From a virus, in IMG/VR virus record IMGVR_UViG_3300025874_000005, positions 64,001-128,000 of that record: 64,000 bases of DNA. One strand, written 5' to 3'. Below are positions 3,258 to 8,068 of the stretch, piece after piece (position 1 is the first letter of the stretch; every line of letters begins with the position of its first letter). The notes beneath the pieces are model-generated. The model had not been told where the DNA came from, ran no database searches, and saw nothing but the letters and a program-made list of their open reading frames with translations. The translations under genes were made by a program, and so were the position numbers.

Positions 3258-4073
3258 ATGATGAATTCAGAAAATTTGCAAGAAGCAAAGTATTTAACAA
3301 AAGAAGCGATTGCCAAAATGGCACCTTCAGTTTTTTCAACGAAGCCAAGTAGTGAGGTTTCAGACAAGTATACACACATTCCAACGGAGCGTGTAATTGA
3401 TGATATGGAGCTTCTAGGTTGGAAGCCAATTGAAGCCAAAGAAGTTAAGGCTCGTAAGAACTCAACAAAAGGATTTCAAAAGCACTTGCTAGTGTTTAGA
3501 AATGATGATGTTGTTATTAATGGTAGTGATGGTGATACAGTTTTTCCACAAATTCTACTAACAAATTCTCACGATGGTAAGAATTCCTTCCAATTTCAAG
3601 CAGGTTTATATCGTTTGATTTGTGCAAATGGTTTAGTTATTGCAGATACGCAATTTGAAGCCGTTAAAATGCGTCATATGGGTTATACATTTGAGGATCT
3701 TCAGGTTTTACTTAAGGACATGGTAGAAAAGCTTCCGCTTACAGTTGAATCTATGAATAAGATGAAAGCTCAAGAAATGGCAGAAGAAGAAATTCTACAA
3801 TTTGCTAAAGATGCCATTAATACTAGATTTTCAAAGCAAGAAATGAAGCGTATTGAAATTGATTATAAAGCTTTAGTTCAGCCCGTACGTAAGGAAGATT
3901 ACGGTACAGACCTTTGGTCAGTATTTAATGTAGTTCAAGAAAAAATTGTAACAGGTGACTTCGATTACCGAGCAGGTGGTAAAGCACGTAAAGCTCGTGA
4001 GATAAAGAACTTCAAGCAAGATATGAAGATCAATAAAGAATTGTTTGATGTAGCACTTCAATATGCGAACTAG
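3258..4073 (+). CDS. DUF932/DUF945-family protein
   Basis: SDKYTHIPT, FQKH, NSHDG, AGLYRLICANGL, DLWSVFNVVQE motifs. Confidence 0.85.
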   Translation: MMNSENLQEAKYLTKEAIAKMAPSVFSTKPSSEVSDKYTHIPTERVIDDMELLGWKPIEAKEVKARKNSTKGFQKHLLVFRNDDVVINGSDGDTVFPQILLTNSHDGKNSFQFQAGLYRLICANGLVIADTQFEAVKMRHMGYTFEDLQVLLKDMVEKLPLTVESMNKMKAQEMAEEEILQFAKDAINTRFSKQEMKRIEIDYKALVQPVRKEDYGTDLWSVFNVVQEKIVTGDFDYRAGGKARKAREIKNFKQDMKINKELFDVALQYAN

Positions 4074-4467
4074 AGTCACATGGTTAAATGGTTGTTTTGA
4101 TGTGCTCCATGCGGGGCACATCCAACTATTTAAAAGAGCTTGGGAGGAAGGAAATGATGTGATAGTAGGAATTGACTCAGATGAGCGTATTCGTCAGATG
4201 AAGGGTGATTGTAGACCGGTGAATTCTCTTGAAAATAGAATGCTCTTCCTACAAAGTATAAAATACATTAGGAATGTAATTCCTTTCAATACGGATGATG
4301 AGCTAGATGGTTTAATTAAACGCTTGGCTCCCGAAGTATTTGTAATTGGTGAGGAGTATAGAAATAAGACAATTATAGGTAAAAAGTGGGCTAAAGCAAT
4401 GTTGTATGTGCCTCGCTATCAAGGCTTAAGTTCTTCGGATATTATAAACGGAACCCACAACTCATGA
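4063..4467 (+). CDS. cytidylyl/adenylyltransferase (RfaE domain II / TagD-like)
   Basis: GCFDVLHAGH (HxGH), VGIDSD, KG..RP, SSSDI. Confidence 0.85.
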   Translation: MRTRVTWLNGCFDVLHAGHIQLFKRAWEEGNDVIVGIDSDERIRQMKGDCRPVNSLENRMLFLQSIKYIRNVIPFNTDDELDGLIKRLAPEVFVIGEEYRNKTIIGKKWAKAMLYVPRYQGLSSSDIINGTHNS

Positions 4468-4491
4468 TATTTATAACAAAATAATAGAATT

Positions 4492-4857
4492 ATGCCAACA
4501 TATCCCAGCTCATCACTAAACGGAAGTGGATCTTTAGGAACGTCAGTTATGACTGCCGGTCAACAATATCTCTTTGAATTAGAAAATACCGCGACGACGA
4601 TTGGTTCGGTAGCTTACTTTACACTGGAAGCTAACTCAACCGCAAATCAAAATCTTCTTACTCAAACACCAATAGCCGGAGCGTTTGGTGGTTTTTTACA
4701 AGATATTGATGAAGGGTCTTTGCAAGAAAATACCTATGGTTTTTCCGTAAGTCTATTTGGTAAGGGTGGTTCATTTACATTTACCCCTACTACCACAATT
4801 CCTGCAAATACTTACTATTTAAAAACAACTGGTCGTGTAGGGTTGGTGATATCATAA
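4492..4857 (+). CDS. hypothetical beta-rich protein (probably late/virion)
   Basis: Preceded by TATTTATA (4468-4475); S/T/G-rich. Confidence 0.6.
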   Translation: MPTYPSSSLNGSGSLGTSVMTAGQQYLFELENTATTIGSVAYFTLEANSTANQNLLTQTPIAGAFGGFLQDIDEGSLQENTYGFSVSLFGKGGSFTFTPTTTIPANTYYLKTTGRVGLVIS

Positions 4858-4929
4858 TATATACGTATGTATAGATGTTATATTGTTAAGGAGAGAAGTT
4901 TCGAGACGACCTAATTAAAATTAAAAAAT

Positions 4930-5067
4930 ATGTTATATAAAATCAAGATTACTGAAAGTGAAAGTGGAAAAGTACAAGAAATGCAAATTAAAACCGATCG
5001 TTTAGAATGGTTTATGGAGCAATATCAAAGAAATAGACCTGTTTTTACTTGGGAAATTATTAAGTAA
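4930..5067 (+). CDS. hypothetical protein (45 aa)
   Basis: MLYKIKITESESGKVQEMQIKTDRLEWFMEQYQRNRPVFTWEIIK*; A-rich leader. Confidence 0.5.
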   Translation: MLYKIKITESESGKVQEMQIKTDRLEWFMEQYQRNRPVFTWEIIK

Positions 5068-5070
5068 GTT

Positions 5071-5244
5071 ATGGATCTTTTTAATAAGAAGAAGGTTGTA
5101 AACCTTCAAAAAAATATTAATAAGTGTAATGCTACTATTCTAAAAATGAGTCAAGACATTGATTATCTTAAAGAAGTTAATAGAAAACTAAAGGAAGAAA
5201 ATAGCAATTTAAAATATACTCTAAAACATCAAAGAACTTATTAA
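5071..5244 (+). CDS. hypothetical coiled-coil protein (57 aa)
   Basis: AAGTT-ATG start directly after the previous stop; heptad-like pattern. Confidence 0.45.
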   Translation: MDLFNKKKVVNLQKNINKCNATILKMSQDIDYLKEVNRKLKEENSNLKYTLKHQRTY

Positions 5245-5249
5245 ATAAA

Positions 5250-5280
5250 TTTGGTTTTTTAAGATATCTTTCGTATATTC
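5250..5280 (+). promoter_or_regulatory. early/middle-type promoter
   Basis: TTTGG-N15-TTCGTATATTC. The same motif occurs at 6249-6278, 6487-6518, 8849-8878, 27211-27240, ~30438-30465 and 46002-46031. Confidence 0.7.
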
Positions 5281-5305
5281 ACCACGTAATAAAAAAATAA
5301 AGGTT

Positions 5306-6244
5306 ATGAATCTAGGATACGCTTGTATTAATACTGCACTAAGTGCTAACAAAATTATGACAAATCGCACAATGCGTCGAAAAACATTTGATGCTAAAGG
5401 TATTGATTATGTCTCCGATCTTGCATTACTTAATGTTAAAGATCTTAAAACTATTGTTCAGTGGAATAATGAGATGAAAATCAAGTTATTTCGGTTATCT
5501 AGCCAAATATTCCCTTGGTCAGATGAATATGATGTTAAAACTCTTAAAGATTATGATGAGATTAAATCAATAATGTTTGAGATTGGGCAAATTGCTAAAG
5601 ATGGAGGACAACGACTTACGATGCATCCAGGCCCTTATAATTGTTTAGCTTCACCTACTCAAAAAGTAGTTGAAAAAACTATTAGAGAATTAAATTTTCA
5701 TAGTGAGCAATTTAATATGATGGGTTATGACCCATCACCTTACAATAAAATAAATATTCATGTTGGAGGTGCATATGGTGATAAATCCACAACGTTGGCG
5801 CGTTTTGTGCAGAATTTTAGTTTATTGAATATTGACACTCAAAAACGCTTAGTTATTGAAAATGATGACAGTCCAAACGAATACTCTGTTAAAGATTTGT
5901 TTGATGGTATTTATCAACAAATTGGTATTCCAATTACATTTGATTATTTCCATCATAAATTTAATACTGGAGGGTTAACTGAGGAAGAAGCACTTAAAAT
6001 GGCATCTATTACTTGGCCTGAAGGTGTTACTCAATGTTGTCATTATTCTGAAAGTAGACGTGAAGAAAAATTAGATGAAACAATTCGCCCTCAAGCTCAC
6101 TCTGATTTAATTTATAATAAAATTAATACTTATGGTCTTAACCCAGATATAGTAATAGAAGCTAAATTAAAAGAACAGTCTATTTTTAATATAGGTCAAG
6201 ATTCAGAAGAGAATGAATTTAAAGTTTTAACACAAGCTTGTTAG
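5306..6244 (+). CDS. uvsE: UV damage endonuclease
   Basis: LGYACIN, FRLSS, RLTMHPGPY, INIHVGG, IENDD, FDYFHH, AHSD, IEAKLKE. Confidence 0.95.
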   Translation: MNLGYACINTALSANKIMTNRTMRRKTFDAKGIDYVSDLALLNVKDLKTIVQWNNEMKIKLFRLSSQIFPWSDEYDVKTLKDYDEIKSIMFEIGQIAKDGGQRLTMHPGPYNCLASPTQKVVEKTIRELNFHSEQFNMMGYDPSPYNKINIHVGGAYGDKSTTLARFVQNFSLLNIDTQKRLVIENDDSPNEYSVKDLFDGIYQQIGIPITFDYFHHKFNTGGLTEEEALKMASITWPEGVTQCCHYSESRREEKLDETIRPQAHSDLIYNKINTYGLNPDIVIEAKLKEQSIFNIGQDSEENEFKVLTQAC

Positions 6245-6740: not shown

Positions 6741-6829
6741 GCCGCTGTGGTGGAATTGGTAGACACGACAGACTTAAAATCTGTTGAGCCGAATGGCTCG
6801 TGGCGGTTCGAGTCCGCCCAGCGGTACCA
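6741..6829 (+). tRNA. tRNA-Leu(UAA)
   Basis: Acceptor GCCGCTG/CAGCGGT; anticodon arm ACAGA-CTTAAAA-TCTGT; long variable arm; GGTTCGAGTCC T-loop; encoded CCA. Confidence 0.95.
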
Positions 6830-6860
6830 ACACTCCTAAAACGTTATTTTTTTATAGAAT

Positions 6861-6937
6861 GGACTCGTAGCTCAGCTGGATAGAGCAATACCCTTCTAAG
6901 GTATCGGTCGTAGGTTCGAATCCTACCGGGTTCACCA
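6861..6937 (+). tRNA. tRNA-Arg(UCU)
   Basis: D-arm GCTC-AGCTGGATA-GAGC; anticodon arm ATACC-CTTCTAA-GGTAT; GGTTCGAATCC; encoded CCA. Confidence 0.95.
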
Positions 6938-6940
6938 CAT

Positions 6941-7017
6941 AGGCATGTATCTCCTCAAGCTTATACCTTGTAGAAAGAGTAATTGGTTACATGAGAGTTC
7001 AAGTCTCTCCTTGCCTA
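6941..7017 (+). ncRNA. atypical tRNA-like RNA with UAU (Ile) anticodon loop and no canonical D-arm
   Basis: Acceptor AGGCATG/CTTGCCT-A; T-arm GAGAG-TTCAAGT-CTCTC; anticodon arm CAAG-CTTATAC-CTTG. Only 8 nt where the D-arm should be; hairpin GTAA-TTGG-TTAC sits in the variable position. Confidence 0.65.
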
Positions 7018-7084
7018 CCTTAAAGAAGATTTACATATGTATTAGTGATAAAACGTTATTCTACTTTACACTCTCTATTACTTA

Positions 7085-8068
7085 ATGTATAAATTTCTTC
7101 TTTCCCTTGCGGTTATATTACTGCCCTTATCGTTATTTTCCCAATCTCCAGATGCCATAATAGGTGATGTAGAAATTGAAACTGGGTGTATTGGTGATAC
7201 ACCTTTTTATAACATAAATTATGTTGTATGGAATTTTGGTGATGAAGAAATTACAGACTATTGTATTGAAATTTGGAATGAAGATTATTATCAATGTTTT
7301 AGTAGTGATTTATTTGGGGCTTATGCAATTCCTCCTGGGGAAGGGCAATTCTTTACTACTCCTTATTTTGAAATGGAAGGGCCTGGTAGTATTTTTGTAA
7401 TGTCTGTTGATGGTATTTTAAATGAAATCGTTACTGGAAATAATAATACAACTGTATTCTTACCTGAAATACCTGAGTGTCCTGTTGATTGTTTAAACGA
7501 TACAATTACTATAACTTTACCACCAGATACTATTATACAAACGCAAATTGACACCGTTATAACGCAAGAATACGTGTATTTAACCGATACAATTGTGGAA
7601 TACATAGCAGATACTGTAGTTGTAGACAATTACATATATACAGTAGATACTTTGGAAGTTGAAGTTTTAGAGTATGTTTTTTTAACAGATACTATCACAA
7701 AAATTATTGAAGTAGATTGTAATACTGGTTTGCCCTGTAGTGAATTAATTATTGATGGGTGCTGGCCTTGGAATGTTTTTATACCTAATGTACTAACCCC
7801 AAATAATGATGGTATAAATGATGTTTGGGAAATTATTTTTGATTTAGAGTGTTGGGTTGATGTAGAATTTAAGATTTACAATAGATGGGGAAGTTTAGTT
7901 TTTGAAGGTTACGGAGAAGATTATAGCAGTTATCCTTATTGGGATGGTAGTATGCAAGGTGGATCCTCTTATGTGGTTGATGGAATATATGTTTATACTT
8001 TCTATGCTAGAAAATATAATTCCCCAGAAATATATCAAAAATCTGGGCATCTTACAATATTAAGGTAA
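7085..8068 (+). CDS. secreted protein with T9SS type B (gliding-motility-associated, CHU_C-like) C-terminal sorting domain
   Basis: Signal peptide MYKFLLSLAVILLPLSLFSQ; C-terminus FIPNVLTPNNDGINDVW...FKIYNRWG...WDG...DGIYVY...GHLTILR. Confidence 0.85.
   Translation: MYKFLLSLAVILLPLSLFSQSPDAIIGDVEIETGCIGDTPFYNINYVVWNFGDEEITDYCIEIWNEDYYQCFSSDLFGAYAIPPGEGQFFTTPYFEMEGPGSIFVMSVDGILNEIVTGNNNTTVFLPEIPECPVDCLNDTITITLPPDTIIQTQIDTVITQEYVYLTDTIVEYIADTVVVDNYIYTVDTLEVEVLEYVFLTDTITKIIEVDCNTGLPCSELIIDGCWPWNVFIPNVLTPNNDGINDVWEIIFDLECWVDVEFKIYNRWGSLVFEGYGEDYSSYPYWDGSMQGGSSYVVDGIYVYTFYARKYNSPEIYQKSGHLTILR

Follow-up and report, generated by a model that had tools for sequence, protein, structure and literature searches.

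A candidate phage tRNA-Ile(UAU) with an internally permuted D/anticodon domain

Can an RNA that has a tRNA's acceptor stem, T arm and anticodon loop, and little else where the D-arm belongs, be a functional tRNA, and what has then become of its D-arm? The question is raised by a 77-nt element, hereafter the rewired gene, at positions 6941-7017 of a stretch of 64,000 nucleotides (the window) from IMG/VR virus record IMGVR_UViG_3300025874_000005. This record is a complete marine phage genome of 164 kb and ~31% G+C, in which the rewired gene lies beside two ordinary tRNA genes. An initial annotation, made from the sequence alone, had described an RNA with a UAU anticodon, a missing D-arm and a D-loop-like hairpin moved behind the anticodon arm, and had proposed either a topologically permuted functional tRNA-Ile or a tRNA mimic. 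The former proposal gains support from covariation, the tertiary signature, identity elements, the anticodon slots that such genes fill in phage tRNA arrays, and the use of AUA codons, and we consider it quite probable that the element is a functional tRNA-Ile(UAU) with an internally permuted D/anticodon domain. The layout is common to hundreds of phages; a search of the full-text literature, literal sequence words included, found no description of it.

The split D-stem and the order of segments

Direct reading of the rewired gene agrees with much of the initial annotation: the acceptor stem has a single mismatch (U.U at pair 6:67, 6946/7011), the T arm is perfect, the 7-nt anticodon loop is canonical (C32 U33 U34 A35 U36 A37 C38, with the anticodon UAU at 6962-6964), and the 3' end reads A-CCT instead of CCA (Table 1). 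The acceptor and the T arm are separated by 45 nt, in which TATCTCCT (6948-6955) is the sole sequence in the usual D-arm place, between positions 9 and 26, and contains no D hairpin. The annotation was correct in this observation and mistaken in calling the D-arm missing. It had remarked that CTC (6951-6953) could pair with GAG (6977-6979), beyond the anticodon arm, and this helix is paired in 205/205 distinct members of the family, in seven combinations (CTC/GAG, CCC/GGG, CGC/GCG, CAC/GTG, ACC/GGT, ATC/GAT, and CTG/CAG). The first search patterns had fixed both strands of the split D-stem; each of three more scans demanded a change at one base of the upstream strand, with no constraint on the base opposite, and the complementary base was found in 112/112, 4/4, and 6/6 tRNA-like matches (122/122). 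A fourth pair is U.U in the window gene and A-U in a relative (L177:10189-10265). As judged from these comparisons, the D-arm is split rather than missing, its halves lying on either side of the anticodon arm.

The remaining helices covary as well. In an alignment of 120 distinct sequences (A1), 97.7% of the cells are paired, compared with 41-46% when the partners are slid, and the covariation score of 0.733, against 0.09-0.14 for slid partners, was reached by 0/500 shuffles. Double, compensatory changes were observed at 7/7 pairs of the acceptor, 4/4 of the anticodon stem, which is 100% paired, and 4/5 of the T stem. A second sequence set gave the same pairing picture, and RNAalifold recovered the acceptor, anticodon, and T stems independently. 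The alternative RNAalifold pairs between columns 12:34 and 13:33 were rejected, as 112/112 of the variants at column 12 keep A at column 34 and switch column 38 to the complement. The check suggested along with the annotation, a covariance model of phage homologues combined with an analysis of covariation, has come out in favour of a structured RNA in which all helices covary.

The segment behind the split D-stem fared differently. The GTAA-TTGG-TTAC hairpin proposed by the annotation can be drawn, but it shows no compensatory change, does no better than shuffles, leaves A41 and column 49 unpaired in 37/120 sequences, and would engage G6979, which belongs to the covarying CTC/GAG helix. Its GG had been recognised as the dinucleotide of the D-loop, and this holds. 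GAGTAATTGGTTACAT spans 6977-6992, and across the family the D-loop-like segment reads A-R-Y-Y-G-G-U-N-A..., with A14 conserved and with variable positions at 16, 17, and 20a, as in ordinary D-loops. Positions 15 and 48 covary (A-U 147, G-C 43, G.G 9); they form the Levitt pair of ordinary tRNA, which covaries likewise. The GG dinucleotide (G18G19) is at least 90% conserved, and like T54, C56, A58, and G53-C61, which are invariant, it is conserved without any search requirement. The segment is better read as a putative single-stranded D-loop than as a hairpin.

The order of an ordinary tRNA is 8-9, D-stem 5' strand, D-loop, D-stem 3' strand, 26, anticodon arm, variable loop, and T arm. The rewired gene has 8-9, D-stem 3' strand, CU, anticodon arm, UAGAAA, D-stem 5' strand, D-loop, 48, and T arm, which in standard numbering becomes 8-9, 22-25, 26, 27-43, a purine-rich junction, 10-13, 14-21, 48, and 49 onward. 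Blocks 10-21 and 22-45 are, on this assignment, swapped, i.e., an apparent internal circular permutation in an unchanged acceptor/T frame. The D-stem strands pair around the anticodon arm and make one helix of ~10 layers, equal to the D-stem, position 26, and anticodon stem of the cloverleaf, and by textbook tRNA geometry the three new joins (7/9-22, 43-10, and 21-48) would link residues that are neighbours in the known fold. The CU at 6954-6955 is probably equivalent to 26/27. The UAGAAA junction presumably has a structural role; its GAAA was fixed by all the search patterns used, is kept in 6/7 members found by the covariance model, and is absent from the most divergent one. In the anticodon loop, A37 is invariant in the family even where no search required it, and U33 and a purine at 37 are both present. 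The same loop, CTTATAC, occurs in canonical phage tRNA-Ile(UAU).

A family of rewired genes and its detection

Viral contigs and cultured phages, the latter including 78 Streptomyces phages and the crAss-like Kehishuvirus tikkala, yielded 205 distinct relatives. The contexts of the family comprise crAss-like, Streptomyces, and marine phages and the arrays of jumbo phages. A 25-nt stretch of T arm and acceptor, used as an exact probe, matched 14 viral contigs, in each of which the whole 79 nt are identical, while the neighbouring tRNA-Leu is 74-79% identical, tRNA-Arg down to 73% (in L005), and the flanks 42-73%. Such identity amid diverged neighbours suggests purifying selection. An exact 24-nt probe from the core matched more than 116 viral contigs and yielded at least 78 versions, in whose acceptor and T stems the differences compensate one another; almost all of its matches have covarying tRNA stems. 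When the window element was used in blastn on cultured phages, it gave two crAss-like matches only, and a relative with a GAU anticodon was the better probe. In 596 Gb of prokaryote genomes, a loose 17-base core pattern had 63 matches. About 47 of these lack a T arm and were dismissed as chance, their number being close to the ~70 estimated from the size of the collection and the length of the pattern. The ~16 real matches are all on contigs of metagenome-assembled genomes; among the four contigs inspected, one has a dense array of 20 tRNAs, one an endolysin-like gene, and two no clear phage marker. The class is essentially phage-restricted.

A covariance model built from the family (R1) gives its members 71-98 bits and canonical tRNAs at most 27; the window gene, which is itself part of the model, scores 96.6 bits and has the segment order of the class (acceptor, UA, D-stem 3' strand, anticodon arm, purine-rich junction, D-stem 5' strand, GG loop, T arm). 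We discarded a weak match in the same genome (C1:11299-11387, 18.7 bits), which is not tRNA-like, and, as false positives, two score-10 matches (L413, L418) whose loop reads 'UAA' and a further match (L290) that reads 'CUU'.

The layout also has variants. A divergent 90-nt subclass with UAU anticodon (L191:5337-5426, minus strand; L161:4368-4457, plus strand) keeps the permuted order with a different core sequence, and in it an additional hairpin separates the D-loop-like segment from the T arm. Three weak R1 matches (L191:4194-4273, L161:4872-4949, and L161:5086-5165) resemble Arg members with further core variants. In the crAss-like phage cr130_1 (NC_055901), directly upstream of a rewired tRNA-Ile(UAU), there is an apparent 5' half of an ordinary tRNA (L121:1436-1481), with an acceptor strand, a full D-arm, a partial anticodon region, and no T arm, on which RF00005 makes no call. 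It might be a relic of the rearrangement.

These genes escape the programs used to annotate tRNAs. ARAGORN, which the initial annotation had expected to miss the element, made no call on it at default, relaxed (-ps50), intron, or mitochondrial (-mt) settings, and Rfam gave no match on its strand at the gathering cut-off or at E<=10, RF00005 included. Over the family ARAGORN called 1/218 copies, and two relatives scored 24.5 and 27.4 bits with RF00005, below its cut-off of 29 bits. A transfer-messenger RNA (tmRNA) is not indicated either: the ARAGORN tmRNA search and Rfam were negative, and the inner stretch where a tag frame would lie is only 45 nt long. Among the 59 matches listed for the 78 Streptomyces phage records, all but one fall on an unannotated site, and the rewired gene is also unannotated in the record of Kehishuvirus tikkala. 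If these genes are tRNAs, such misses mean that phages are credited with less capacity to decode Ile and Arg codons than they have.

Anticodons, tRNA repertoires and the locus

Members with other anticodons came to light in scans with U34 excluded or with a varied core, and the family now has UAU, GAU, CAU, ACG, CCU, UCU, UCG, and a single UAC. The rest of the molecule follows the anticodon. An A right after GG (A20) is present in 29/29 members with Arg anticodons (ACG, CCU, UCU, and UCG) and in 0/176 others, and A73, which the Ile, Met, and Val identities demand, in 176/176 members of these types. A20 is the main determinant for the bacterial arginyl-tRNA synthetase (PMC9976931). The A20 rule also holds for canonical tRNAs at these loci, whose anticodon loops (CTTATAC and CTGATAA) are those of the rewired genes. 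Only identities of class Ia synthetases were found (Ile, Met/Ile2, Val, and Arg), a range that hints at which synthetases tolerate the fold. The sole member with a Val anticodon (L420:10637-10713, minus strand) has discriminator A and the core CTG/CAG, and suggests a class that is not confined to Ile, Met, and Arg. From the bacterial Ile set (PMC9976931, Table 1), the window gene has A73 (A7017), C4-G69 (C6944-G7013), A35-U36-A37 (TAT-A, 6962-6965), and U20/U21 (GGTT, 6985-6988). At the 3' end, C74 is encoded in 203/206 copies (98.5%) and the full CCA in 35/206. A tally of canonical phage tRNAs at loci L002-L205 found C74 in 950/987 distinct sequences (96%) and the full CCA in only 121/987. 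In this respect the rewired 3' end behaves like that of canonical phage tRNAs.

The distribution of these genes in tRNA arrays was analysed in arrays that contain 12 or more canonical tRNAs, 53 in number and taken from loci of at most 15 kb rather than from whole genomes. A canonical GAU gene occurs in 0/41 arrays with a rewired GAU versus 7/12 others (p=5e-6), and a canonical UAU gene in 0/18 arrays with a rewired UAU versus 17/35 others (p=1.5e-4). The complete genome of Kehishuvirus tikkala (OQ198717) has 26 canonical tRNAs, among which Ile is represented by UAU alone, and the rewired gene, at 95577-95653, is its sole Ile-GAU. In arrays, rewired genes fill the anticodon slots left empty by canonical genes. 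The assertion of the initial annotation that UAU tRNAs are rare does not extend to phages, since canonical Ile-UAU is present in 17/53 large arrays (18 by ARAGORN, one call overlapping a rewired gene). The Streptomyces phage Jay2Jay (L425; KM652554, 62000-100000) has its rewired tRNA between a nucleotidyltransferase gene, with a borderline Pfam match to RlaP of an RNA-repair pathway (23.1 bits), and an FtsK-like gene; its other products include a Ro-like RNA-binding protein, a tmRNA, and ~45 tRNAs, with many duplicates among the last.

In the 164-kb genome that contains the window, ARAGORN finds two tRNAs only, Leu(UAA) and Arg(UCU), and no other tRNA-Ile. The codons AUA, UUA, and AGA make up 40% of Ile, 57% of Leu, and 65% of Arg codons, and this heavy use matches the three clustered anticodons UAU, UAA, and UCU, as the annotation had anticipated when it remarked that a UAU tRNA would complete a set for A-ending codons.

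The rewired gene starts 3 nt past the CCA of tRNA-Arg(UCU) and ends 65 nt upstream of an open reading frame (ORF) at 7085-8068. No ORF of at least 60 aa overlaps 6941-7017, and scans for promoters and terminators beside the gene gave nothing over background. The word AAAACGTTAT has just two copies in the 64 kb (6837-6848 and 7049-7060; 0.24 expected), which extend to TAAAACGTTATT and flank the pair formed by tRNA-Arg and the rewired tRNA-Ile; it is present in relatives too, and could be a promoter word, a terminator word, or a cassette boundary. The downstream ORF (plus strand) has a C-terminal CHU_C type IX secretion signal domain (PF13585, 60.8 bits), which points to a Bacteroidota host and to a putative phage-encoded cargo protein of the type IX secretion system. 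Upstream, on the plus strand of 3258-6244, are genes for a DUF932 protein (3258-4073), a cytidylyltransferase-like protein (4063-4467), and the UV-damage endonuclease UvdE (5306-6244). No tRNA-related function is evident among these four neighbours.

Table 1. Segments of the rewired gene and adjacent tRNA genes, in window coordinates
Feature	Position	Strand	Remarks
tRNA-Leu(UAA), canonical, CCA encoded	6741..6829	+	ARAGORN; RF00005 59.5 bits
tRNA-Arg(UCU), canonical, CCA encoded	6861..6937	+	ARAGORN; RF00005 67.7 bits
Acceptor 5' strand AGGCATG (1-7)	6941..6947	+	Pairs with 7010-7016, 6/7 pairs
U8 and A9 equivalents	6948..6949	+	TA after the acceptor in every member, including divergent covariance-model finds
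D-stem 3'-strand equivalent U22 C23 U24 C25	6950..6953	+	6951-6953 pair with 6979-6977
Junction CU (putative 26/27 equivalents)	6954..6955	+	Conserved, without covariation; U6955 opposite U6971
Anticodon arm CAAG/CTTATAC/CTTG	6956..6970	+	Stem 6956-6959/6967-6970, 7-nt loop 6960-6966
Junction UAGAAA (44/45-like and extra purines)	6971..6976	+	Links anticodon stem to D-stem 5' strand
D-stem 5'-strand equivalent G10 A11 G12 U13	6977..6980	+	Partner of 6951-6953
D-loop-like single strand A14 A15 U16 U17 G18 G19 U20 U A C A, U48	6981..6992	+	U48 adjoins T stem
T arm GAGAG/TTCAAGT/CTCTC (T54 T55 C56 A57 A58)	6993..7009	+	5-bp stem, 4/5 pairs covary
Acceptor 3' strand CTTGCCT (66-72)	7010..7016	+	Pairs with 6941-6947
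Discriminator A73, C74 C75	7017..7019	+	A76 not encoded (T7020)

Possible function, alternatives and known systems

If the element is a tRNA, its life would probably begin with co-transcription with tRNA-Leu(UAA) and tRNA-Arg(UCU), followed by an RNase P cut at A6941, by trimming, and by the addition of A76 by the CCA-adding enzyme. The D-loop-like strand would dock on the unchanged T-loop and give the usual elbow and L shape. The host isoleucyl-tRNA synthetase could then charge it through A73, C4-G69, U20/U21, and A35-U36-A37, and EF-Tu could carry it through its canonical acceptor/T half. As an elongator it would decode AUA, which this AT-rich phage needs.

A number of points weigh against this interpretation. 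The case is comparative throughout, made of pairing, tertiary signature, identity pattern, and array distribution, and it is from these that we infer expression, charging, decoding, the three-dimensional fold, and any selective advantage. The fold of the single sequence is no more stable than that of shuffles (z = -0.03). The anticodon stem has just four Watson-Crick pairs plus U6955.U6971 instead of the canonical 5 bp, and the acceptor pair 6:67, which is U.U here, is unpaired in 30/120 relatives. Several bacterial Ile determinants (U12-A23, G16, C29-G41, A38, and G34 or lysidine-34) are absent; by our numbering their places are taken by G12-C23, U16, A29-U41, C38, and U34, although canonical phage tRNA-Ile(UAU) likewise has U34 and C or U at 38. 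The array statistics describe loci and not whole genomes, and in Jay2Jay a rewired GAU (75237-75313) coexists with a canonical Ile-GAU (92308-92383) 17 kb away, a counter-example tempered by the many tRNAs duplicated in this phage. Finally, the core is conserved beyond the needs of pairing. Part of its apparent invariance was imposed by the search patterns, and such conservation could reflect recognition by a factor other than the translation machinery.

This last point is also an argument for the mimic that the initial annotation had offered as its second possibility, i.e., an RNA with a tRNA-like fold and an Ile anticodon loop that acts outside translation and soaks up or misleads a host nuclease directed at tRNAs, a modification enzyme, or some other defence protein that binds tRNA. 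The restriction of the class to phages and the extra GAU of Jay2Jay are in line with such a role, which we nevertheless hold to be unlikely: a bait for anticodon nucleases needs the anticodon arm only, yet the distant A20 and A73 track the anticodon class, the acceptor/T half is fully canonical, and in arrays a rewired gene stands in for the canonical gene with its anticodon instead of adding to it. Still less probable is that the element works as a tRNA-shaped processing signal, a punctuation for RNase P or RNase Z serving tRNA-Arg or the downstream mRNA, as another structural RNA, or as a charged tRNA used off the ribosome. Its acceptor/T minihelix alone would be a substrate of RNase P, and the position of the element, 3 nt past tRNA-Arg and 65 nt ahead of the ORF, would suit a processing signal. 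Such a signal has no need, however, for a conserved 7-nt loop with U33 and A37, for class-specific A20 and A73, or for a covarying 15:48 pair, and the contexts of the family are very different from one another.

That the element is a functionless relic, either a decayed tRNA pseudogene or a fragment of an attachment site, is hardly credible. The failure of tRNA finders and the unremarkable folding energy would be expected of a pseudogene, and the annotation had regarded a lack of homologues with conserved or covarying arms as the sign of one. Instead, compensatory changes mark each helix across the 205 distinct relatives, and there are copies that are 100% identical across contigs with diverged flanks. 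A 3' attP fragment would not have both acceptor strands, as this element does.

Returning to a functional tRNA-Ile(UAU), one guess at the selective reason for its fold is an escape from tRNA-directed nucleases. More specifically, it is possible, though doubtful, that the permuted core is a phage adaptation that keeps the L shape and the class Ia determinants while removing the surfaces seen by host defence nucleases or by the phage's own enzymes that deplete host tRNAs. If this were true, the phage would go on decoding while cloverleaf tRNAs are destroyed, and bacterial ribosomes would, for the first time, have been shown to work with a natural tRNA that is not a cloverleaf. More generally, such a class would demonstrate that a chain with another strand order can arrive at the same L shape and still serve bacterial translation. 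As cultured carriers exist, it would be a tractable test of which tRNA-binding enzymes need the connectivity of the chain and which need only its shape, and the fold is a possible starting scaffold for orthogonal tRNAs.

Among the known RNAs closest to the rewired gene are canonical phage or bacterial elongator tRNA-Ile(UAU/GAU) (RF00005), with which it shares the 7-bp acceptor, A73, the T54-C56-A58 arm, the anticodon loop, G18G19, the 15:48 pair, U after GG, the position in arrays, and C74. Unlike them, it has D-stem strands split by the anticodon arm, no D hairpin, no separate variable loop, an anticodon stem of four pairs plus U.U, and 4 nt more. A gene with segments in non-canonical order is in itself not new: in a study ascribed to Soma et al. 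(2007, in Science), the red alga Cyanidioschyzon merolae reportedly has circularly permuted tRNA genes in which the 3' half precedes the 5' half and processing restores the cloverleaf. Unlike in the algal type, the acceptor strands of the rewired gene form its two ends and the permutation is confined to the inner D/anticodon domain, and therefore the mature RNA itself should be non-cloverleaf.

On paper, the three-way junction of acceptor, long anticodon-domain helix, and T arm, with no D hairpin, resembles D-armless mitochondrial tRNAs such as metazoan tRNA-Ser(AGY) (PMC4013460), which have lost the D-stem and the contacts between D- and T-loops and rely on co-evolved factors. The rewired class differs from these in keeping the D-stem pairs, A14, 15:48, and G18G19, and a normal elbow is expected from its sequence; the mitochondrial mode of ARAGORN makes no call on it. 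Allo-tRNAs with 8/4 or 9/3 acceptor/T branches (PMC5389517) are also natural non-standard tRNAs from metagenomes, some of them in phages; in these it is the helix lengths that change within the cloverleaf, whereas in the rewired class it is the connectivity of the strands. The engineered D-armless 'mini HisT' is artificial, has lost all D elements, and needs a pnp mutation for stability in evolved E. coli (PMC11551756). It shows that a tRNA lacking a D hairpin is usable by bacterial aminoacyl-tRNA synthetases, EF-Tu, and ribosomes, in the case of EF-Tu and ribosomes in their unadapted E. coli form, and this acceptance makes a functional rewired tRNA plausible. According to the same study, all known bacterial tRNAs are cloverleaf (PMC11551756), and with the phage class nature would provide an exception.

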